Source of the DNA: Pseudomonadota bacterium | Lineage (GTDB): Bacteria; Bdellovibrionota; FAC87; UBA2466 | DNA length: 11,722 nucleotides | Assembly (NCBI GenBank): GCA_043718025.1 | Contig: JAYSWN010000084.1 | Location: 1-11,722, forward strand | Direction: 5' to 3' | Shown here: in pieces, positions 2,780-11,069 of the stretch | Numbering within the stretch: position 1 is the stretch's first letter | Layout of the letters: each line of letters begins with the position of its first letter | Made by a program: the position numbers and the translations under genes | Notes under the pieces: model-generated | What the model saw: the letters and a program-made list of their open reading frames with translations, nothing else | Databases searched by the model: none | What the model was told of the DNA's origin: nothing

Positions 2780-3025
2780 ATGATGAGCCGATTAATTTTT
2801 GTTTTGTTTTTGGGGTTCCTACTAAGCGGTTGCGCACGCGCTAAACTTGGCGGCTCGTTCGGCCAAGGTTCCGCCAATCCTGCATCTTCTACCAATCCAG
2901 ACTCTTCTACCGATCCGGTAAATTCTTTTATTGCTGCAGCCAAGCAGATCAGACCAGCCACTAATCAAGCTGCGGTTCAAGCACCGTCGGCACAACCGGC
3001 AGTTTTAGAAGGGGGCACTCGATGA
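2780..3025 (+). CDS. small lipoprotein (signal peptide + lipobox LLSG-C) with a Ser/Pro/Thr/Ala-rich mature region
   Basis: The track ORF starts at TTG 2777. ATGs at 2780 and 2783 follow the GGGAG at 2772-2776. The N-terminus MMSRLIFVLFLGFLLSGC is a classic type-II signal with an invariant Cys. The stop TGA 3023-3025 overlaps the next gene's ATG 3022-3024 (ATGA). Confidence 0.6.
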   Translation: MMSRLIFVLFLGFLLSGCARAKLGGSFGQGSANPASSTNPDSSTDPVNSFIAAAKQIRPATNQAAVQAPSAQPAVLEGGTR

Positions 3026-6000
3026 GCTCATTCACCCATTCCAATTTAACCCAGCGAGCAAAACGGTTAACCCCGGTGCGTTCGCTTCTATTATTAATTA
3101 TCTCTTTTTCTTCGGGCTTGGCGTCTGCCGAGACGACTTATAACGTAAAAACCTTCAGCACGAATTTGACCAACAATTGTGACGGCGGACCTCCCGGCAC
3201 AGTTAAAGACATTACCTATTCTGACTCCATCCTGAGTACCCCGATAACCGGCAACTGCAAGAATTTGGCGAATAGTTTCACCATTAACCAGTACTACCTT
3301 AGTCCTACCAACCCTCTTTTAAGTGGCGCTACTGTAATGTCAACCGGCGGAACTGCCGCCATCGCCCCGACTGTCAACTGTTCCACATGCGTATCCTCCC
3401 CCCCCGACATGACTTGCCCCGTCTGCTCCGGCGATTCGACGTTTTACAAAGTGACTAATCTACTGGTGGGTGATCGTGGACTTGCGACCCCGTTTTTTAC
3501 GGGCGCCGTTACTTTTGATCCAAATCCACAATTTTTGACCAAGTCTTATGATTGCACCGCGTTCCCAAGTAAAAACATTAACTTTCTGTATCTCCAGATA
3601 CCTAACGCTAATATTGCGTCCATCTCTAGTCGTTACCTTGCAGGTACGGCAACCTTCGGGCCCAGCGTAAATACATTGACCTCTAAGGTTGATATTCTTG
3701 GAAACATTACTTGGAGCGGAAGCTACTCTGCTCCAACCGGCACCTGCACCGGTACAACCATAAACAACAGTACGGCCGGCGCATTCGATGCTACGACCCA
3801 GGTTTCAATCAATACCTCAGGGTATTTTAAGAATATTAATTCAGTTGCTGCATTTACCCCGGCCATGACGGTACTTCCCGTCAGTCTTGGCACTAACGAC
3901 GTTGGTGGTCCGGCAACCTACAACGGAATTACTTTTCGAAGCAATTACGCCAATAACACAAACACTATTTTTCCGTTCAGAGCCGTGGCCGCCACAAATG
4001 GCATGAGTTTTAACCTCTTTAAGTTTACCAACGTTGAAACCGATACGGCGGCTGCCGTTAAATACGCCACTATCACCGTAACCGCGTGGAACTCTCCGAG
4101 CGCCGGCCTGGGCAAAGGGACCATTACAACAAATCCCGGCGGCTTAGTTGGAAATATAATGCTCATGGTGGCTCCCCCTGGAGGCATGGGCGGAGCGGGC
4201 GGCGCCAGAATTGATTTTTCAGGTCAGGACCCCGATGGCACGCAATATTTGTTGGCCGGCAGTTTTGTTGCCCGCGGTCCCGCCGGAGTTTTGGATACCT
4301 CGTTTGGCACAGGGGGAATAAAAATCGACCAAATCTCTTCGGCCACTACCAACACTAACTCCGTAGGCCACGCCGCAGCCATTCAATCGGACGGAAAACT
4401 ATTGGTGGCGGGACAATCTGCAACCGGCGCGTCCCTCAATGAGTTTTCGGTCACGCGTTATAACACCGATGGCTCTAACGATAATACGTTTGCCACCAGC
4501 CATAAGTTTCAAACCCAATTTTCACTGCCGGCCACCGCCAAAGCGGTAACCTTTACGCCCAACTCCACCGCCACGGTGACAGGTACCGTGGGCACCACCA
4601 CGACGGCGTACATTAACTGGGCCAATAGCCCATTACTCGCCGACGAAAAAGTAATGTTCGGAGGCACCCCGCTGACGTCGACGGTCACTTTTACTACTAC
4701 GGGTAGTGCCAGCACTAGCTTCGTGAACTGGACCGGCCATGTCTTAACCGCCAACGCTCCGGTCATTTTTACCGGAACCACCATGCCCTCAAATATCACT
4801 GCCGGAGTTACGTATTACGTAAAGGCACCTGTAGCGAATAAGTTCCAGGTCACCACAACCTCGGGCGGGGCGACCGCAGTTATATTCAGTGCCGCACCGG
4901 CGGCCGTGGCAGTAACCGCAACGGGGAGCCATGCTCCCGCACCCTTATTAGACAACACGGTATATTACGTGAAATCACCGACTGGCACCGGAGCAAGCAC
5001 AAAGTTTCTGGTAAGCGCCACTCCCGGCGGAACGGGTATCGCGCTAACCACGGTTGGAATTGCGGTTACCGCAACCCAAGTTGGCGGAAGAGCTACGGCA
5101 ACCGCGCACGCCTATGCGGCCAATGCTGCAATTACCTTCGCACAAAACGTCAGCAGCACGTTACCTGCCGGCTTGGCGGTGGGAACCACTTATTACGTGG
5201 CGGCTTCGCCCGCCCCTCTTGCCAATAGCTTCTTTGTCTCGGCAACTAACGGTGGCGCGGCGATCAATTTAACTGCCGCGGGCACGGGAACCTTTACCGT
5301 TACTGGCCCGGGCACATCTTCTACTGACTCTATTGCCCACGGTATAGCGCTAGACACCGCAGGAAAAATATACGCTACCGGATACGCCAAATTTGGTACT
5401 ACAAGGCGAGTGGTGTTGGTGCGATTAACTTCGGCCGGCGTGCTTGATGCCACTTTTGGTACCGGCGGTGTAGTGCTAACCGATGACAGCCCGGGCAACA
5501 ATAGCCGGGCCAGGGGAATTAAATTAGATTCTACCGGCAAAGTGGTTGTGGCCGGCGATGTGGTAGTAGGCACCATTACCGCTTTCATGGTACACCGCTA
5601 CACAACCGCCGGCGTGCTAGACACCACTTTCAACACCACGGGCAAGCGCACTACCCAAGTTGATACCAGCCTCGTTTACGGCTCTTCCGCCCAAGGCCTC
5701 ACCATTGATGCTTCGGATAATATTTATATGGTGGGTTTAACTTATGATCCCGTCTCGACTTTAGAACAGTTCGCGCTTGTGAAAGTAAGCAACGTTGGCG
5801 CGTTGGTCACAGCGTTCTCCACCGACGGCATAGTCACCGTGCAACCATCCTCCGTTTGGGGAAAATCTTGGGCTTACGGAATAGTGCTCGACGGAACCAA
5901 GGTCACCGTCGTGGGAGATTCCATGTATGACGGAACAAACTTTCAATTTGCCGCGGCCCGCTTTAACGCTACCACGGGCGCGGTGGACACCACTTTTAAC

Positions 6001-6381
6001 GGGGGTGTTGGCGGAAACCTCACCGGCACGGTTGTCTTTGACGCCTCAACCTTCACCACTAAGAGCTCCACGGCGCACAATATTAGCCTTAGAAATAACC
6101 AATATCTCGTCGGCGGCACGGGCCGGATTGTAACGACTGGCAGTAATGCTTTTGCCATGGCCCGACTCAATAGCAACGGTAGCTTAGATTCCACTTTCGG
6201 AACGGCTGGCGTAAGCATGAAACAGATATCGCCTTGGACCACACCAATGTCCTACATGGGCGCGCTCGATAAAAATGGCGCCGCGATCACCAATAACTGG
6301 GGTCAAATTTTCTTTGTCGGCGCGGCAAAAGATGTCACCGCCGGGTACTATGCGATTGGGATCACCGCGCTAGTCCCCTAA
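3022..6381 (+). CDS. large secreted delta-60-repeat (beta-propeller-type) cell-surface or extracellular protein, 1119 aa
   Basis: Signal peptide MSSFTHSNLTQRAKRLTPVRSLLLLIISFSSGLASA-ETT. The protein is strongly Thr/Ser/Gly/Ala-rich. The N-terminal roughly 360 aa carry scattered Cys pairs (NNCDGG, GNCKNL, NCSTCVSSPPDMTCPVCSGDS). Motifs of the form DGK(L/I/V)(L/V)VAG...(F/A)x(V/A)(T/A)R(Y/L/F)NxxGxLDxTFGxxG recur at least 7 times and match the delta-60 repeat family. Stop TAA 6379-6381. Confidence 0.85.
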   Translation: MSSFTHSNLTQRAKRLTPVRSLLLLIISFSSGLASAETTYNVKTFSTNLTNNCDGGPPGTVKDITYSDSILSTPITGNCKNLANSFTINQYYLSPTNPLLSGATVMSTGGTAAIAPTVNCSTCVSSPPDMTCPVCSGDSTFYKVTNLLVGDRGLATPFFTGAVTFDPNPQFLTKSYDCTAFPSKNINFLYLQIPNANIASISSRYLAGTATFGPSVNTLTSKVDILGNITWSGSYSAPTGTCTGTTINNSTAGAFDATTQVSINTSGYFKNINSVAAFTPAMTVLPVSLGTNDVGGPATYNGITFRSNYANNTNTIFPFRAVAATNGMSFNLFKFTNVETDTAAAVKYATITVTAWNSPSAGLGKGTITTNPGGLVGNIMLMVAPPGGMGGAGGARIDFSGQDPDGTQYLLAGSFVARGPAGVLDTSFGTGGIKIDQISSATTNTNSVGHAAAIQSDGKLLVAGQSATGASLNEFSVTRYNTDGSNDNTFATSHKFQTQFSLPATAKAVTFTPNSTATVTGTVGTTTTAYINWANSPLLADEKVMFGGTPLTSTVTFTTTGSASTSFVNWTGHVLTANAPVIFTGTTMPSNITAGVTYYVKAPVANKFQVTTTSGGATAVIFSAAPAAVAVTATGSHAPAPLLDNTVYYVKSPTGTGASTKFLVSATPGGTGIALTTVGIAVTATQVGGRATATAHAYAANAAITFAQNVSSTLPAGLAVGTTYYVAASPAPLANSFFVSATNGGAAINLTAAGTGTFTVTGPGTSSTDSIAHGIALDTAGKIYATGYAKFGTTRRVVLVRLTSAGVLDATFGTGGVVLTDDSPGNNSRARGIKLDSTGKVVVAGDVVVGTITAFMVHRYTTAGVLDTTFNTTGKRTTQVDTSLVYGSSAQGLTIDASDNIYMVGLTYDPVSTLEQFALVKVSNVGALVTAFSTDGIVTVQPSSVWGKSWAYGIVLDGTKVTVVGDSMYDGTNFQFAAARFNATTGAVDTTFNGGVGGNLTGTVVFDASTFTTKSSTAHNISLRNNQYLVGGTGRIVTTGSNAFAMARLNSNGSLDSTFGTAGVSMKQISPWTTPMSYMGALDKNGAAITNNWGQIFFVGAAKDVTAGYYAIGITALVP
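3398..3405 (+). repeat. homopolymeric C8 tract inside the large surface-protein CDS (codons S-S-P-P-D)
   Basis: Direct reading gives gtatcctCCCCCCCCgacatg. Confidence 0.9.
4207..4526 (+). repeat. delta-60-type repeats, block 1 (two units: ...YLLAGSFVARGPAGVLDTSFGTGG..., ...DGKLLVAGQSATGASLNEFSVTRYNTDGSNDNTF...)
   Basis: Read from the translation. Frame checked at nt 4291 (Leu424). Confidence 0.6.
4732..5307 (+). repeat. three roughly 55-65-aa 'YYV' repeats (G(V/T)TYYV(K/A)...(F/L)xVxATxGG(A/T)xIxLT...AVTATG), an unnamed module inserted between the delta-60 blocks
   Basis: GVTYYVKAPVANKFQVTTTSGGATAVIFSAAPAAVAVTATG, NTVYYVKSPTGTGASTKFLVSATPGGTGIALTTVGIAVTAT and GTTYYVAASPAPLANSFFVSATNGGAAINLTAAGTG align by eye. 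A degenerate copy may precede them (AYINWA...KVMFGG...TTTG). Confidence 0.55.
5320..6378 (+). repeat. delta-60-type repeats, block 2 (5-6 units through the C-terminus)
   Basis: Units are anchored by LDATFGTGG, LDTTFNTTG, ALVTAFSTDG, VDTTFNGGVGG and LDSTFGTAG. Each is preceded by a hydrophobic beta-strand pair (KIYATGYA / VVLVRL, KVVVAGDV / FMVHRY, NIYMVGLT / FALVKV, KVTVVGDS / FAAARF, QYLVGGTG / FAMARL). Confidence 0.7.
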
Positions 6382-7813: not shown

Positions 7814-8350
7814 TCAGCTATTGAACATCCAGTTCGCGCAGGCGGCAGGGCCGTTTGGTGCATTTTTGTCGTCGACGAATGCCGAATTTACTTCATCAAG
7901 CTTCTTTAAAATATGAGGATCAGAAATTCGGGCCTTCATGTAATTAACCAGATGCTGTGGACTTGGACCACCCACCGCGTCGAAGCAAGCAAGGCCGCTT
8001 TTGAAAGAGACGAGTTCCGCACTATTCAACTTTTGCTCAAGCCAACCGCTGGCCACGCTGCGCACCATCTCTTCAAAAAAACCTACGTTAGGTACGTCAA
8101 CCTGGGTAATCACTTTTGCGACTTCGCTGTTCTGTACCCGTTCGGCGGTATAGCCTATCGCCTTTACCGCCATATAGCCCACCCCTACCGCACCAACCGA
8201 AAACAAGGCGAATAGTGAGAGACTCGCCATCACGAGCGTTCGCTTGTTGCGTTTCAGAAAATCTAATTGCTTCCCGATTCTTAATTCGTTGTTCATGAAT
8301 AGATAGTGACTCATTCTTTCGAATTGAAGAAATTGATATTCCAGAAACAT
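7814..8350 (-). CDS. hypothetical single-pass membrane protein
   Basis: 178-aa minus-strand ORF with TM segment LVMASLSLFALFSVGAVGVGYMAV. Alternative in-frame ATG starts exist at rc 8312-8314 and 8294-8296, so the start is uncertain. No recognisable domain. Confidence 0.5.
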   Translation of the reverse strand: MFLEYQFLQFERMSHYLFMNNELRIGKQLDFLKRNKRTLVMASLSLFALFSVGAVGVGYMAVKAIGYTAERVQNSEVAKVITQVDVPNVGFFEEMVRSVASGWLEQKLNSAELVSFKSGLACFDAVGGPSPQHLVNYMKARISDPHILKKLDEVNSAFVDDKNAPNGPAACANWMFNS

Positions 8351-8451: not shown

Positions 8452-8581
8452 TTTAGAGACACCTTCCCGATTTCTGCAGATCCCTCCACAGTTCATCAAT
8501 TCTCAATGGCTCTACATTTGCATAAGCACCGCAGAAATACGTAGAGGTTTAGTCTGATCGTTTATTAACGGGAGAAAACTA

Positions 8582-9142
8582 ATGAAAATGACTCGCATTG
8601 CCATGACCGGTTTATCGATTGCTATCGGAGGCGTCGCTTACCTTAAGACATCGCCCTCGTTTTCCTCTGTGCCAATTTCAAACCTAAAACTGATTGCCGA
8701 AACTTCGGCACCCACGGAGGTCGCCTTCAAGTTGGTAATGGCACGTACCAATGGGCTGATCGAAGGCAATTTTCCAGCGGCCGTGATTAACGGAAACTTT
8801 CCCAACGCAGTCACTAGTGGCAACTTTCCCGATGCCGTGACCAGTGGAAATTTTCCGACCAGTGGCATTCCTACCATCTCAGGCGGTAGCCCAGAGGGAA
8901 GGGATGAATTGGTCTCCAACACAAATTCGGTTCAGTCCATATTGGGGGGCAACTTTCCGAACTCCGTGTTGAACGCCAATTTTCCGGACACCCTGTTAAA
9001 CGGAAACTTTCCGAATTCAGTCCTAAACGCCAATTTTCCGGAAACTGCTCTCTCCGGCATCTCAGGCGAGTCGGCAAACCTTTCTGCCGTTTCGTTACGC
9101 GAACTGGAGAGAAATATTCCGCAACCTGAAATTTCTCTATAG
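8582..9142 (+). CDS. secreted protein with eight tandem 9-residue GNFPxxVxN repeats; candidate repeat-peptide precursor / substrate of the downstream HTTM system
   Basis: ATG 8582 is preceded by GGGAG at 8570-8574 with a 7-nt spacing. The N-terminus MKMTRIAMTGLSIAIGGVAYL is signal-peptide-like. The repeat units are GNFPAAVIN, GNFPNAVTS, GNFPDAVTS and GNFPTSGIP, then a 25-aa linker, then GNFPNSVLN, ANFPDTLLN, GNFPNSVLN and ANFPETALS. Each block is followed by an ISG-containing segment (TISGGSPEG / LSGISGESA). Stop TAG 9140-9142. Confidence 0.7.
   Translation: MKMTRIAMTGLSIAIGGVAYLKTSPSFSSVPISNLKLIAETSAPTEVAFKLVMARTNGLIEGNFPAAVINGNFPNAVTSGNFPDAVTSGNFPTSGIPTISGGSPEGRDELVSNTNSVQSILGGNFPNSVLNANFPDTLLNGNFPNSVLNANFPETALSGISGESANLSAVSLRELERNIPQPEISL
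8765..8872 (+). repeat. 4 x 27-nt (9-aa) in-frame tandem repeats, block 1
   Basis: Frame verified at 8765 (GGC = Gly of the first GNFP). The nucleotide copies diverge at synonymous positions (aatttt/aacttt, cca/ccc/ccg) while the peptide motif is conserved. Confidence 0.85.
8948..9055 (+). repeat. 4 x 27-nt (9-aa) in-frame tandem repeats, block 2
   Basis: Frame verified at 8948 (GGC) and 9029 (GCC = Ala of ANFPETALS). Confidence 0.85.
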
Positions 9143-9155
9143 CTAAAGAGTGCCT

Positions 9156-9695
9156 ATGAATTTACTTGGTAGACGTTGGTTAGGAAGTTTGGTGATTTTA
9201 TTGGCGCTGTCGCATTTGACGTGGGTTGCTCTATTTGCAGCCCACGTCCCCATGCCTTCCGAAGGTGCCTTAGGAACCTTCATGCGCTGGTATTTGGGCA
9301 TCTCAGGTTGCAACACCCGCTACGGATTCTTCGCGCCGAATGTGGGAACCAACTTGAGGGCCAGGTTTGAAGTGGTAGATCACAAGGGCACTCACAAGTC
9401 AGAGATTCTTGAGGCAGGTAGCTCGAGAGAATCGCAGATACGAGTTCAAAATGTTATGTCCCTCTTTGGACGATACATTGCCAACCCCAAAATTGAGCGA
9501 TCACTCACCGCTTCCTGGGCCGGAACCGTTTTGGGCCGTTACCCGGCGGCAACTGAAGTGGGTGTCTTCGTTGAAGTGCTCGAATTTCCCGAGCTCTCCC
9601 ATCACGCCAGAGGCAAAGAATCGGTCTGGCGAGAAGTCTACCGCGTTAAATTTACCAGAAATCAAATCAAGAAAGAGTCGTCGAATGGTATCTAA
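9156..9695 (+). CDS. hypothetical 179-aa protein with an N-terminal hydrophobic segment; by position an SdpA-like partner of the HTTM gene
   Basis: The track ORF starts at GTG 9150. ATG 9156 sits 6 nt after AAAGAG (9144-9149) and gives MNLLGRRWLGSLVILLALSHLTWVALFAAHVP... Stop TAA 9693-9695 overlaps the HTTM ATG 9685 (ATGGTATCTAA). No motif I can name. The SdpA-like role is inferred from gene order and size only. Confidence 0.55.
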   Translation: MNLLGRRWLGSLVILLALSHLTWVALFAAHVPMPSEGALGTFMRWYLGISGCNTRYGFFAPNVGTNLRARFEVVDHKGTHKSEILEAGSSRESQIRVQNVMSLFGRYIANPKIERSLTASWAGTVLGRYPAATEVGVFVEVLEFPELSHHARGKESVWREVYRVKFTRNQIKKESSNGI

Positions 9696-10623
9696 AATTG
9701 AGTTGGCGATTCGCAATTTTTTCTTAAAACCGACCAATGGCGCCCCGCTGGCCGTGTTGAGAGTTGGTATTTCGTCGGTACTTCTCATTCAAGGTTTTTG
9801 GATCGCCAATAATTTTGTTTCTCTCTATACCCCCACGGGGTTTCTCCAGGAGGGATTGAATCAATATTTCACCTTTTCGCTAGGCTACTCAACTCTGGTA
9901 CACAAATTTTTTAAATGGTTTGGCAATATTGAAGTGACCCCCGTTCAGGCGTTTCGTGGGCTGTTCTTTGTCTATATCGTTTCACTGGTCCATTTATTGG
10001 TAGGCTTGCGTACCCGTCTTTTTTCGATTCTGGCGTTACTCTGTCACTTCCTGCTTTTGACGACCGGCTATTTTGCTAGCTACGGAATGGATCGATTCTG
10101 CCAAATCGGCCTATTCTACTTAAGTGTATTTCCTTGTGGCGAGGCATTTTCGGTCGAGGCCGGTTGGAATAGAATTACCGAGAGAAAAAATTCATTCAAC
10201 ACTTTAGGATTACGCGTGCTGCAACTTCATCTTTGCATCGCCTACCTTGCCACCGGGGTGGAAAAATCTCTGGGGCACGAGTGGCACAACGGAGAGGCGA
10301 TCTGGAGATCGCTAATGCTTCCCCACTTCCGGCAGTTTGATTTTAGCTGGCTCTCCTCGATGCCGTGGATCGCCAAGCTTGCCGGTTGGGGAACTCTAGT
10401 GGTCGAAGCGGGCTACCCTTTTCTTATCTGGTCAAGGCGCACCAGAGGTATCTGGCTCGCGGCGATCATCGGACTTCACCTTGGCATCAGTGTTTTCATG
10501 GGTCTGGTTTCCTTTGGCCTAACGATGATCGTCTTAAATGTGGCGGCTTTTGGTTTCGCCAAACTCGGCACCTCTGGCTCGGTTGCCGCGCAGCCCCCCC
10601 GCCAGGTAACGCTAGGCCTTTAG
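9685..10623 (+). CDS. HTTM-domain (vitamin K-dependent gamma-carboxylase-like, SdpB-type) polytopic membrane protein, 312 aa from ATG 9685
   Basis: The track's 404-aa ORF from 9409 has a 92-aa N-terminal extension that overlaps the upstream gene in another frame and reads as low-complexity noise. The internal ATG 9685 gives MVSKIELAIRNFFLKPTNGAPLAVLRVGISSVLLIQ, matching the HTTM N-terminal helix (human GGCX LAVFRFLFGFLMVLD). Further matches are LRVLQLHLCIAYLATGVEKSLGHEWHNGEAIW to GGCX [27 protein letters not shown], and WGTLVVEAGYPFLIW-SRRTRGIWLAAIIGLHLGISVFMGLVSFGLTMI to the GGCX/HTTM C-terminal block. About 8 hydrophobic helices. Confidence 0.85.
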   Translation: MVSKIELAIRNFFLKPTNGAPLAVLRVGISSVLLIQGFWIANNFVSLYTPTGFLQEGLNQYFTFSLGYSTLVHKFFKWFGNIEVTPVQAFRGLFFVYIVSLVHLLVGLRTRLFSILALLCHFLLLTTGYFASYGMDRFCQIGLFYLSVFPCGEAFSVEAGWNRITERKNSFNTLGLRVLQLHLCIAYLATGVEKSLGHEWHNGEAIWRSLMLPHFRQFDFSWLSSMPWIAKLAGWGTLVVEAGYPFLIWSRRTRGIWLAAIIGLHLGISVFMGLVSFGLTMIVLNVAAFGFAKLGTSGSVAAQPPRQVTLGL

Positions 10624-11069
10624 CGGCTACGATACAATTTTACCGAGGAGATCGTGCGGTTCACTTCTTTTTGAATGGCTTCGTAGGTTTCTTCGGGCGC
10701 CTCGAACCGCACTTCAAACGCCATCTTCTTTCCGTTCACCTTGGTGAGCGTTTGGGAAGAACGAACCAATCCCGACCCGGTTTGGTAGAGGGAATCGAGC
10801 CATTCGACACCGTGGATGTCGCGGTTGGTAGCGAAGTGCACCTTTTCCCCATGCGGACGCAAGCTCGCTAAGGAAACTCCCGGCAAAATTTTCTTAAGCC
10901 CCATGGTCATCGTGGCCATTTCATCGGAGTAAGGGCTGCGGCAGGTCAAGGACCCTTCATCGATACGACGACACTTCCAATTGGGCGGCTTCTTCCACGC
11001 TTTAACGCGAAACTCATCCGCGTGGGCGCCAAAGGTTAAAAAAAGGAGCGCTAAAAAGGCTAATTTCAT
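10620..11069 (-). CDS. hypothetical secreted or periplasmic protein (149 aa)
   Basis: The minus-strand ATG (rc 11067-11069) gives MKLAFLALLFLTFGAHA-DEF, a clean Sec signal peptide with an AHA cleavage site. The mature part contains 4 Cys. It converges on the HTTM gene with overlapping stops. No recognisable domain. Confidence 0.55.
   Translation of the reverse strand: MKLAFLALLFLTFGAHADEFRVKAWKKPPNWKCRRIDEGSLTCRSPYSDEMATMTMGLKKILPGVSLASLRPHGEKVHFATNRDIHGVEWLDSLYQTGSGLVRSSQTLTKVNGKKMAFEVRFEAPEETYEAIQKEVNRTISSVKLYRSR

Follow-up and report, generated by a model that had tools for sequence, protein, structure and literature searches.

A widespread bacterial gene set encoding an HTTM/GGCX-like membrane protein, an unannotated partner, and a putative secreted repeat-protein substrate

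The 11,722-nt stretch of DNA analyzed here (the window) contains three consecutive genes, A, B, and C, which are one instance of a widespread and so far unnamed set of bacterial genes for an enzyme, a helper protein, and a secreted repeat protein. C resembles the transmembrane catalytic domain of GGCX, the human vitamin K-dependent carboxylase, as judged from the fold of its structural model and the conservation of catalytic residues, and the secreted repeat protein is probably the substrate of the C-type enzyme. The explanation that we favor as a whole, with somewhat better than even confidence, is that the three genes form one operon and that B and C together constitute a split, GGCX-like, quinol-dependent periplasmic enzyme that modifies the co-encoded protein A.

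Organization and conservation of the cassette

The genes and the ribosome-binding region of the first are as follows.
8570-8575, plus strand: Shine-Dalgarno-like GGGAGA of gene A, 6 nt before the ATG, read from the sequence
8582-9142, plus strand: gene A, an ORF of 186 aa encoding the putative substrate or partner repeat protein
9156-9695, plus strand: gene B, an ORF of 179 aa counted from the ATG
9685-10623, plus strand: gene C, an ORF of 312 aa counted from the ATG, encoding the HTTM protein

The preliminary description of this DNA had reported three tightly packed plus-strand genes and a convergent 149-aa ORF, and all of these are present. A and B are separated by 13 nt, B and C overlap by 11 nt, and the convergent gene D (10620-11069) shares 4 nt of its 3' end with gene C. 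Purine-rich, Shine-Dalgarno-like stretches were found for A (GGGAGA), B (AAAGAG), and C (AAGAAAGAG); a GTG at 9150 is an alternative possible start of gene B, and the reading frame of gene C is already open from a TTG at 9409.

The conserved three-gene linkage that the same description had anticipated was recovered in relatives. In 76 of 78 genome loci the gene immediately after B is an HTTM gene in the same orientation, and a signal-peptide protein is encoded ahead of B; the spacing of B and C in other loci is confined to overlaps or gaps of at most 14 nt plus one 32-nt overlap. Approached from the HTTM side, all three homologues that were looked up had B upstream. These loci are distributed over six or more phyla (Myxococcota, Bdellovibrionota, Planctomycetota, Verrucomicrobiota, Bacteroidota, and Acidobacteriota), and in two Sorangium loci A and B are present but no HTTM gene adjoins them. 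The window cassette fits the definition "repeat protein - B - HTTM" by its matches to the B and C family HMMs, by the N-terminal motif of A (E 0.0087), and by its repeats.

The gene neighborhood bears on a reading modeled on SdpABC/YitPOM, in which A would be a pre-toxin and B and C would process or release one or more antimicrobial or signaling peptides. We regard this reading as unlikely, although the three-part logic is the same as that of sdpABC/yitPOM (PMC6818787). No SdpI/SdpR-like gene was matched by Pfam or NCBIfam among the 10 largest ORF products of the window (at least 148 aa), and the related loci share no immunity or regulator gene. Gene D, which had been put forward as the nearby immunity or partner candidate, has no homologue in about 90 related loci, and neither does the divergent upstream gene at 7814-8350; both were therefore rejected as conserved partner or immunity genes. 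Sorangium genomes carry up to four cassettes, again with no adjacent immunity candidate. On the other side, Gram-positive DUF5819-HTTM-DCC1 loci have upstream small signal-peptide proteins with Gly/Ala-rich amphipathic cores, one of which adjoins an S8 peptidase.

The membrane proteins C and B

The residues of C that correspond to catalytic residues of GGCX were located by profile alignment.
10264-10284, plus strand: K194...W200 of C, equivalent to GGCX Lys218 (general base) and Trp223 (stacking partner)
10405-10515, plus strand: E241, H265, and F277 of C, equivalent to GGCX Asp263, His287, and Phe299

C is a polytopic membrane protein of 312 aa that comprises the HTTM domain only. Its assignment as an HTTM protein holds: it scored 34.8 bits (E 1.7e-8) with Pfam HTTM PF05090, above the gathering score of 27.7, and its structural matches were confined to GGCX. 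A Foldseek search of the AF2 model (pLDDT 90.1) against the PDB returned 15 hits at E <= 1e-3, all of them GGCX, with query TM-scores of 0.59-0.66 (0.62-0.66 for entries at E 1e-6); the next non-GGCX hit had an E of 1.8. For C, 889 homologues were found, and C matched the family HMM with an E of 8e-125. By contrast, the label SdpB-type was not sustained, since the only NCBIfam match of C, to the SdpB family (TIGR04033), reached 41.2 bits against a cut-off of 178.4. This match points toward the pre-toxin reading by its family and away from it by its score.

A single-sequence phmmer search of C against the PDB gave only spurious matches to light-harvesting peptides, and a family profile was therefore needed. 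The residue equivalences were taken from a profile alignment to PDB GGCX chains that is not significant alone (E 0.33). In GGCX, Lys218 acts as the general base, Trp223 stacks on it, and Phe299 is the CO2-stacking residue (PMC12647623). Of the 83 unique homologues collected across all loci, 82 retain K194, and the same count holds for W200, E241, H265, and F277. An invariant Y133-G134-x-D136 (YGxD) aligns with GGCX Asn159/His160 in a loop segment of the same alignment (E 0.33). Since this pair appears to be replaced by YGxD, B-C probably does not act on a Glu held in the manner of GGCX, as far as sequence comparison indicates.

Two features of B were mapped.
9162-9239, plus strand: N-terminal transmembrane helix, aa 3-28, from AF2 secondary structure
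9327-9338, plus strand: FFAP motif, aa 58-61, invariant in 74 sequences

B is a single-pass membrane protein whose homologues, at about 30% identity, occupy the same position; it matched the B-family HMM with an E of 1e-86, and the family comprises about 1,050 clusters at 50% identity (about 1,053). No Pfam or NCBIfam family was matched among 74 family members. The AF2 model (pLDDT 85.9) consists of the transmembrane helix, the FFAP loop, and a small domain, with FFAP in the loop between helix 2 and the beta-sheet, where pLDDT dips (aa 51-70). Arg-Arg precedes the helix, which contains a nearly invariant His20 by conservation. From the positive-inside rule, we infer an N-in/domain-out topology.

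The suggestion that B is SdpA-like found no support: neither PF17418 nor TIGR04034 matched window B or the 74 members, even at E <= 10. Nor is B a plain DUF5819 member, given that no family member matched PF19136. A local DUF5819 HMM reached a best E of 0.042 against the 74 B sequences, and the B HMM a best E of 0.08 against nine DUF5819 proteins. An hhalign comparison of the same two sets gave a weak signal (probability 4.5%, pairwise P 0.009) over roughly the first 70 columns (10-78), from the transmembrane helix through the FAP region. One protein with 21 B-profile matches (P0323, 2010 aa) was a false positive containing Ig-like repeats with SFTAPNV.

Genes for a DCC1-like/DUF393 thiol-disulfide oxidoreductase follow the HTTM gene in L085, in Ralstonia L092, and in Gram-positive loci. 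They favor a reading in which B and C act in the envelope as a redox module that is linked to quinones and is of the type classed with the DoxX, MauE, and DCC thiol-disulfide families. A would then not be their substrate but a periplasmic or surface protein under common regulation, such as a metal-binding, spacer, or solenoid-like structural protein. We consider this reading as a whole to be rather unlikely; a Pfam scan of the 10 largest ORF products of the window (at least 148 aa) found no DCC gene, A has no Cys, and C keeps the equivalent of the CO2-holding Phe299.

The secreted repeat protein A and its relatives

Along protein A, the following features were distinguished.
8582-8665, plus strand: predicted signal peptide, about aa 1-28, by hydrophobicity/charge heuristic only
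8666-8713, plus strand: post-signal-peptide motif, SVPISNLKLIAETSAP, by motif HMM and alignment
8765-8872, plus strand: repeat block 1, GNFPAAVIN GNFPNAVTS GNFPDAVTS GNFPTSGIP, from the sequence and Tandem Repeats Finder
8948-9055, plus strand: repeat block 2, GNFPNSVLN ANFPDTLLN GNFPNSVLN ANFPETALS, from the sequence and Tandem Repeats Finder
9113-9139, plus strand: C-terminal NIPQPEISL, by eye only

The predicted signal peptide begins with MKMTR followed by hydrophobic IAMTGLSIAIGGVAYL. The segment behind it corresponds to a family consensus of [ST]TP[IV][QE][DE]LxL[VI]EE[TV]xAP (TTPIQDLxLVEE-like). With a motif HMM built from 34 homologues, window A excluded, the match of window A was weak (9.7 bits, E 0.004-0.009), and window A ranked first among the 161 six-frame ORF segments of the window. 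By eye, its motif is closest to that of locus L020 (TTPIEELVLIAETRAP). The motif also occurs in L085 (E 0.005) and, by eye, in L084, neither of which was used for building the HMM. In vitamin K-dependent proteins the propeptide directly follows the signal peptide, at the mature N-terminus, and the motif of A is placed in the same way. We propose that it is a docking or recognition element.

The eight GNFP-type nonapeptides in two blocks of four noted in the preliminary description are evident in the sequence. They take the form [G/A]NFP and lie at aa 62-97 and aa 123-158; both blocks were detected by Tandem Repeats Finder as period-27 DNA arrays (8792-8856 in block 1 and 8950-9040 in block 2). 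Block 2 shows an 18-residue super-period, and the best autocorrelation period of A is likewise 18. The C-terminal NIPQPEISL resembles the family C-terminal LP[ST]P[VQ]V[SE]L, examples of which are GMPSPQVSLN (L008), LPSPQVEL (L084), and LPTPSVEL (L085). It obtained no significant score with the motif HMM and was therefore retained as a by-eye resemblance.

Protein A matched no Pfam or NCBIfam family and is a singleton cluster, and a scan of metagenomes with C gave two loci at 39-41% identity, both without GNFP repeats. A word-index search for B returned B alone, and no second GNFP-repeat protein was found. A linkage of GNFP-repeat genes with HTTM homologues in relatives, about which the preliminary description had asked, was not supported, the closest relatives carrying other repeat types; the GNFP type is unique to window A.

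What the relatives share is architecture. The upstream signal-peptide protein is repeat-rich in Myxococcota, Bdellovibrionota, and related MAGs, and the upstream genes of 49 of the 78 genome loci encode proteins in which tandem repeats or low-complexity sequence accompany a signal peptide and the motif, the same position and architecture as window A. Repeat scores of these proteins are mostly 0.5-1.0, whereas the B and C controls reach at most 0.40. The tandem repeats are hypervariable (HGH, WHGH, YRPYG, and GNTTG among them) and have no chemistry in common; many, including these four, lack Asp and Glu entirely. In Bacteroidota and Verrucomicrobiota, non-repetitive lipoproteins are encoded upstream instead. 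Gene callers often miss the secreted repeat proteins of these loci or place them on the wrong strand, as antisense ORFs.

These data argue strongly against the view that A is a spurious or unrelated ORF whose adjacency to the B-C pair has no functional meaning, which we regard as highly improbable. In its favor are the singleton status of A, its lack of a family match, and the tendency of low-complexity regions to yield spurious ORFs, antisense mis-calls included. Against it, A has a good Shine-Dalgarno sequence, an ATG start, and a predicted signal peptide, it lies 13 nt from B on the same strand, and equivalent motif-sharing upstream genes occur in dozens of loci from distant taxa.

The redox reading gains from the numerous His-rich A proteins, a composition typical of metal binding, and from the way repeat number drifts among strains, a single orthologous group ranging from 101 to 146 aa, as is seen in spacer or structural proteins. 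The nonapeptide period and 18-residue super-period of window A are also compatible with a beta-roll or solenoid. However, His-rich proteins are not universal among the A family, and the conservation of the mature N-terminal motif on repeat proteins that are unrelated in other respects would be difficult to account for unless they shared a binding partner.

For the pre-toxin reading, the A proteins of Corallococcus carry at their C-terminus about 45 Gly/Asn/Leu-rich residues, flanked by two Cys, which look bacteriocin-like. Window A, on the other hand, has neither Cys nor a long hydrophobic, toxin-like segment past the signal peptide, and His-rich repeats such as an array of HGH x20 do not look membrane-active. 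The repeats of A directly abut one another, neither dibasic nor other spacer or cleavage sites occur between units, and a Pfam scan of the 10 largest ORF products of the window (at least 148 aa) detected no peptidase gene. Thus, of the features of a multi-core RiPP precursor, A has the repeats and lacks the cleavage sites with a dedicated protease.

Proposed mechanism and comparison with known systems

In the split-enzyme explanation that we prefer, C would be the catalytic membrane subunit, a bacterial relative of vitamin K-dependent carboxylase that appears to keep the GGCX residues for quinol deprotonation and oxygenation as well as the aromatic residue that holds CO2. B would be a single-pass accessory subunit in physical complex with C, its periplasmic alpha/beta domain and FFAP loop completing the active or substrate site. 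Its role would be that of the fused lumenal "clamp" in GGCX and, by prediction, of DUF5819 in Gram-positive HTTM systems. A would be exported by Sec, and after removal of the signal peptide its N-terminal motif may dock on B-C on the periplasmic side of the inner membrane, where B-C would use menaquinol and O2 to modify residues of A by carboxylation or another reaction beginning with proton abstraction. A more specific version, in which B-C acts in the periplasm as a protein carboxylase dependent on menaquinol, or as a related enzyme that activates C-H bonds, and modifies Sec-exported ribosomal repeat proteins, seems to us doubtful. Its targets could be acidic residues of the motif, or Gly or other residues of the repeats, and its products could be Gla- or aminomalonate-like metal-binding groups.

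Few bacterial HTTM/GGCX homologues have a known function; SdpB/YitO, known by their role rather than their chemistry, and MloH are the exceptions. The cassette is a compact test case, with enzyme, accessory subunit, and candidate substrate within 2 kb and hundreds of natural variants whose substrates differ in the repeat region only. It also brings to light B as an unannotated family of roughly a thousand 50%-identity clusters and, as a second new item, a family of secreted hypervariable repeat proteins. If the enzyme modifies these proteins, the cassette would show evolutionary splitting or assembly of the GGCX fold and could uncover a novel kind of post-translational modification in the envelope or secreted proteins of bacteria. 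Were the carboxylase version true, it would provide the first bacterial example of a vitamin K-dependent system for modifying proteins, with a substrate family of rapidly diversifying repeats (HGH, WHGH, YRPYG, GNTTG, GNFP, and others).

In sdpABC/yitPOM, production of a toxin from a signal-peptide precursor requires an HTTM protein together with a small partner (PMC6818787). Like these Bacillus subtilis systems, the window combines all three kinds of protein in a single operon. The precursor gene is first in the window cassette rather than last, however, B and C fall below the SdpA and SdpB HMM thresholds, no immunity/regulator pair was matched among the 10 largest ORF products of the window, and A is repetitive and Cys-free, without a hydrophobic, disulfide-containing toxin core. 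Of the SdpABC-like system originally suggested, the logic "HTTM enzyme + small partner + Sec-exported protein" (PMC6818787) therefore stands, whereas membership in the SdpA and SdpB families does not, by the HMMs.

The His-Xaa-Ser system (HxsA, NCBIfam NF038313) likewise places short His-containing tandem-repeat proteins beside putative maturation enzymes, and the A protein of L008 scored 16.8 bits with NF038313, below the cut-off of 55. The maturases there are radical SAM proteins rather than HTTM proteins, and window A has no His repeats.

Closer to the cassette are the two-gene DUF5819 + HTTM(-DCC1) systems of Bacillota and Actinomycetota, in which DUF5819 and HTTM proteins are predicted to assemble into a GGCX-like complex and Leu59/Phe60 of a DUF5819 protein are predicted to contact the vitamin K pocket (preprint, bioRxiv 10.64898/2026.08.19.745780). 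In both cases the partner gene directly precedes the HTTM gene, and its product consists of an N-terminal transmembrane helix and a domain of about 150 aa; [LF]FAP lies about 30 residues past the helix, the W-x-LFAP[DN]P of DUF5819 being at the same distance as the FFAP of B; the HTTM subunit retains Lys, Trp, and Phe; and the upstream neighbor encodes a small signal-peptide protein or, in Actinomycetota, a repeat protein. The two differ in that B is unmatched by PF19136 and DUF5819 proteins by the B profile, that the window has no DCC1 domain or gene, that hosts of the B cassette belong mostly to diderm phyla, and that the substrates there carry another conserved motif. An N-terminal motif common to A proteins and the Gram-positive small proteins upstream of DUF5819 was sought and was not significant.

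Among solved structures, the C model matches GGCX alone, and the equivalents of Lys218, Trp223, Asp263 (Glu in C), His287, and Phe299 are conserved in the C family. The active site of C is expected on the non-cytoplasmic face, and the putative substrate A is Sec-exported, with a conserved element right after the signal peptide like a propeptide. Unlike GGCX, C has 312 aa and no fused lumenal propeptide- and Glu-binding domain, a separate 179-aa B being encoded instead. It appears to have YGxD where GGCX has Asn159/His160, in a low-confidence alignment, and the repeats of A are mostly without Glu. For MloH, a bacterial HTTM enzyme that serves as the malonomycin carboxylase of Streptomyces, vitamin K-dependent carboxylation has been demonstrated (Law et al. 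2018, as cited in bioRxiv 10.64898/2026.08.19.745780 and PMC12647623). According to these citing accounts, its HTTM domain differs from C in being fused to a DUF5819-like region, and its substrate is a PKS-NRPS intermediate rather than a ribosomal secreted protein; its reported activity indicates that vitamin K-dependent carboxylation exists in bacteria, on a non-Glu target.

Organization of the A-B-C cassette and its surroundings

The cassette comprises three plus-strand ORFs, each with a purine-rich Shine-Dalgarno-like stretch ahead of its start.

8582-9142, plus strand: gene A, secreted GNFP-repeat protein (186 aa)
9156-9695, plus strand: gene B, small membrane protein (179 aa counted from the ATG; same form in public collections, protein record P0001)
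9685-10623, plus strand: gene C, HTTM protein (312 aa; protein record P0002)

The sequence confirmed the layout given in the preliminary description, namely three ORFs, a 13-nt gap between A and B, an 11-nt overlap between B and C, and eight repeats in A in two blocks of four. We found no intrinsic terminator-like site that convincingly separated A, B and C and no promoter-like site between them; therefore, a single transcript is the simplest reading.

The window is the entire 11,722-bp contig, which was found in both NCBI and Logan, and its G+C content is approximately 50%. It also encodes a delta-60/DUF5122 beta-propeller protein, an SPFH protein, a 2OG-Fe(II) oxygenase and a TylF-like methyltransferase. 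The beta-propeller protein (3022-6381) is a secreted protein of 1119 aa with six delta-60 (TIGR02608)/DUF5122 repeats and long Thr/Ala/Gly-rich stretches; no other feature of the window hints at a deltaproteobacterium-like source. The oxygenase and the O-methyltransferase (303-2100), separated by 1 nt, may form a small tailoring pair; the similarity of the oxygenase to the cyclophane-peptide oxygenase YhhC was weak and sub-threshold (29 bits versus 150). A convergent minus-strand gene (10620-11069), which shares 4 nt of its 3' end with C, encodes a signal-peptide protein of 149 aa. This protein had been proposed as an immunity or partner candidate, a role that found no backing: it had no family match and no homologue at any related locus.

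The B family and its linkage to HTTM genes

Gene B had no Pfam or NCBIfam match, and a word-index search returned B alone. In Sorangium So ce26, Corallococcus interemptor and a MAG, a homologue of C is directly preceded and overlapped by a gene for a 171-184 aa protein with 28-32% identity to B; the shared blocks include Y-x-FFAP-x-V and SWA-x-x-M/L-F/G-R-H/Y-P. A profile search with B yielded 81 proteins, every one annotated as hypothetical and devoid of Pfam domains. When 1.84 billion representatives were searched exhaustively with HMMER, 1,053 proteins scored E <= 1e-3 and 725 scored E <= 1e-10; almost every one is a stand-alone protein of 160-190 aa, and one long match (protein record P0323) was rejected as a false positive. 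B did not match SdpA, as had been suggested for it, and none of 74 family members matched SdpA, DUF5819 or any other curated family, even at E <= 10. In the searchable literature, neither the B family nor the motif-plus-repeat proteins treated below were found to be described. The AF2 model of B (pLDDT 85.9) has the following elements.

Transmembrane helix, aa 3-28
Second helix
Loop of lower confidence with the invariant F58-F59-A60-P61
Four-stranded sheet against two helices

Scanning the B alignment against one genome per species gave 78 loci.

Distribution of the 78 B loci
Sorangium: 36 loci, up to 4 per genome
Byssovorax: 1 locus
Corallococcus or Myxococcaceae: 9 loci
Bdellovibrionota MAG: 1 locus
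Planctomycetota: 5 loci
Verrucomicrobiota: 4 loci
Terriglobia: 1 locus
Bacteroidota: 17 loci
Other MAGs: 4 loci

An HTTM ORF directly followed B on the same strand at 76 of these loci. The two exceptions, the orthologous loci L027 (Sorangium So ce1078) and L033 (So ce1014), have kept the repeat gene A and B with no HTTM gene downstream; both genomes carry three complete cassettes elsewhere. The partner on a Hymenobacter plasmid also belongs to the B family (E 5e-8). A rival reading of this arrangement is a redox module beside an unrelated structural or metal-binding neighbor. In some relatives the HTTM gene is succeeded by a gene for a DCC1-like/DUF393 thiol-disulfide oxidoreductase (loci L085, 4024-4401; L092, 3885-4337; L093, L094 and L097), and in Bacillus this domain is fused to HTTM; the window contains no such gene.

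Paralogous cassettes, up to four per genome, occur in Sorangium (loci L006-L057 and L080; in So ce1014, L007, L014, L033 and L038), each with its own repeat type (HGH; WHGH/WHGG; YRPYG/FRPYGH; HHHHG). The number of repeats varies by strain, with A proteins of 101-146 aa inside one orthologous group.

Secreted proteins encoded upstream of B

The N-terminus of A consists of Lys/Arg and a hydrophobic stretch, which a heuristic predicted to be a signal peptide. The eight [G/A]NFP nonapeptides form period-27 arrays in the DNA in both blocks, and block 2 (8948-9055) has an 18-residue super-period, (GNFPNSVLN ANFPDTLLN) x2. Since two nonapeptides per unit recall beta-roll or solenoid repeats, A may have a folded structure and not be a disordered protein.

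Counterparts of A upstream of B in Sorangium, Byssovorax, Corallococcus, the Bdellovibrionota MAG and several MAG or metagenome loci share a four-part plan.

Part 1: signal peptide
Part 2: conserved motif where the mature protein is predicted to begin, [ST]TP[IV][QE][DE]LxL[VI]EE[TV]xAP
Part 3: hypervariable short tandem repeats
Part 4: in many cases, LP[ST]P[VQ]V[SE]L at the C-terminus

Their repeats include HGH, in as many as about 22 copies, WHGH/WHGG, YRPYG/FRPYGH, HHHHG, GNTTG/GNxxG, HGGY, GGGGGGH and GHGY; their repeat scores were mostly 0.5-1.0, whereas the B and C proteins from these loci averaged 0.23 and did not exceed 0.40. In the window, the signal peptide is followed by SVPISNLKLIAETSAP, the putative counterpart of the conserved motif, and a motif HMM built without the window ranked A first among 161 window ORF segments (E 0.0087). 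A fits the plan of signal peptide, motif and repeats. Its C-terminus, NIPQPEISL, resembles that of the family by eye, with a non-significant HMM result. As for linkage in relatives, HTTM genes after B and repeat genes upstream recurred, but the GNFP unit was found nowhere outside gene A in word-index, cluster and metagenome-locus searches; what is conserved is therefore not GNFP but the class of motif plus repeats.

The Gly/Asn/Leu-rich end of A in Corallococcus and relatives (loci L043, L047, L051, L055, L056, L059, L061 and L063) spans about 45 aa, is bracketed by two Cys (GGCGF...GNCN) and resembles a disulfide-closed bacteriocin. In Bacteroidota and Verrucomicrobiota, the protein upstream of B-HTTM is a lipoprotein (150-225 aa) or secreted protein, 130-225 aa overall, with no tandem repeats; such proteins seem to make up another partner family, separate from the first. 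A '..L..KY(Q/D)' motif recurs in these proteins, C-terminus included (loci L064-L083, L058, L070, L079 and L091, 1904-2305). Some Planctomycete and MAG loci have upstream signal-peptide proteins of 59-78 aa with acidic tails.

His-rich A genes were often missed by gene callers, which called an antisense or alternative-frame ORF instead, so the motif-plus-repeat family is under-annotated in public data. Such spurious ORFs ('VVVMAAAA...', 'MVTTAVMVV...') occur at loci L004 (3318-3806), L085 (1809-2363, minus strand) and L088 (480-854, minus strand) and at the N-terminus of protein P0277; the true genes beneath them lie on the plus strand, and their products combine the motif and HGH/HGGY repeats with a signal peptide.

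GGCX-like features of C and comparison with known systems

The assignment of C as an HTTM protein held (Pfam, 34.8 bits; threshold, 27.7). Its single NCBIfam match, the SdpB family, scored 41 bits against a cut-off of 178, and the proposed membership in that family was not upheld. C has at least 889 homologues; those with 40-54% identity were from Sorangium, Corallococcus and Planctomycetes as well as numerous metagenomes. A profile of 48 homologues matched only chains of GGCX, the gamma-glutamyl carboxylase that depends on vitamin K, in the PDB sequence set; the alignment was in register at a non-significant E of 0.33.

Residues of C and GGCX paired in the profile alignment (E 0.33)
K194: Lys218
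W200: Trp223
E241: Asp263
H265: His287
F277: Phe299

In GGCX, Lys218 is the general base, Trp223 stacks on it and Phe299 stacks on CO2 (PMC12647623). All five residues of C are kept in 82 of 83 unique homologues, covering every locus and phylum. An AF2 model of C built from the family alignment (pLDDT 90.1) matched GGCX alone among solved structures (E down to 1e-6; query TM-score, 0.62-0.66). The Glu-binding pair of GGCX, Asn159/His160, aligned weakly, in a loop, with the invariant Y133-G134-x-D136 of C; this pairing tentatively suggests a different substrate site.

The analysis showed how the genes are arranged and linked, the fold, and which residues are conserved. The model that accounts best for this is a split enzyme of GGCX type, for which we infer a B-C complex, A as the substrate and the chemistry. 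C would provide the quinol-activating site and B a periplasmic domain with the FFAP loop, and A would be exported and dock via its N-terminal motif. Classical Glu gamma-carboxylation of the A repeats is unlikely, because most repeats lack Asp/Glu and the Asn159/His160 site is apparently changed; the target may be an acidic residue conserved in the motif or another C-H acid.

The other rival is an SDP-type bacteriocin, in line with the SdpABC-like system first proposed. The likeness of A-B-C to SdpABC/YitPOM is confined to operon logic (PMC6818787), which stood, but the SdpA and SdpB family matches did not. A 2026 preprint (10.64898/2026.08.19.745780) describes DUF5819 proteins, made up of an N-terminal TM helix and a domain, as encoded beside HTTM(-DCC1) genes. 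The predicted complex resembles whole GGCX, with DUF5819 where one side of the lumenal clamp would be and its Leu59/Phe60 predicted to contact the pocket for vitamin K; the HTTM subunit has conserved Lys189, Trp195 and Phe273, and MloH is presented there as a natural fusion and a demonstrated carboxylase. At the nine plasmid loci that we compared, the DUF5819 gene lies directly upstream of the HTTM gene and is itself preceded by a gene for a small protein with a signal peptide or, in the actinomycetes Kitasatospora and Curtobacterium, for a repeat protein. The Kitasatospora protein (locus L098, 974-2236) is an 'ice-binding family protein' with terminal GGEHGGDHGG repeats; that of Curtobacterium (locus L099, 196-2331; 711 aa) contains ADATTATNGATN 14 times, together with a sorting-like signal, LAFTG. 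The DUF5819 motif QNW-x-LFAP[DN]P and the FFAP motif of B are equally far from their respective TM helices. HMMs gave no link between the two families, and hhalign gave a weak signal from the TM helix through the FAP region (probability, 4.5%; pairwise P, 0.009); B is therefore an analogue of DUF5819 outside that family, and possibly a very distant homologue. The A-B-C cassette is an instance of a widespread and unannotated variant on the theme of an HTTM protein, a partner and a secreted protein.
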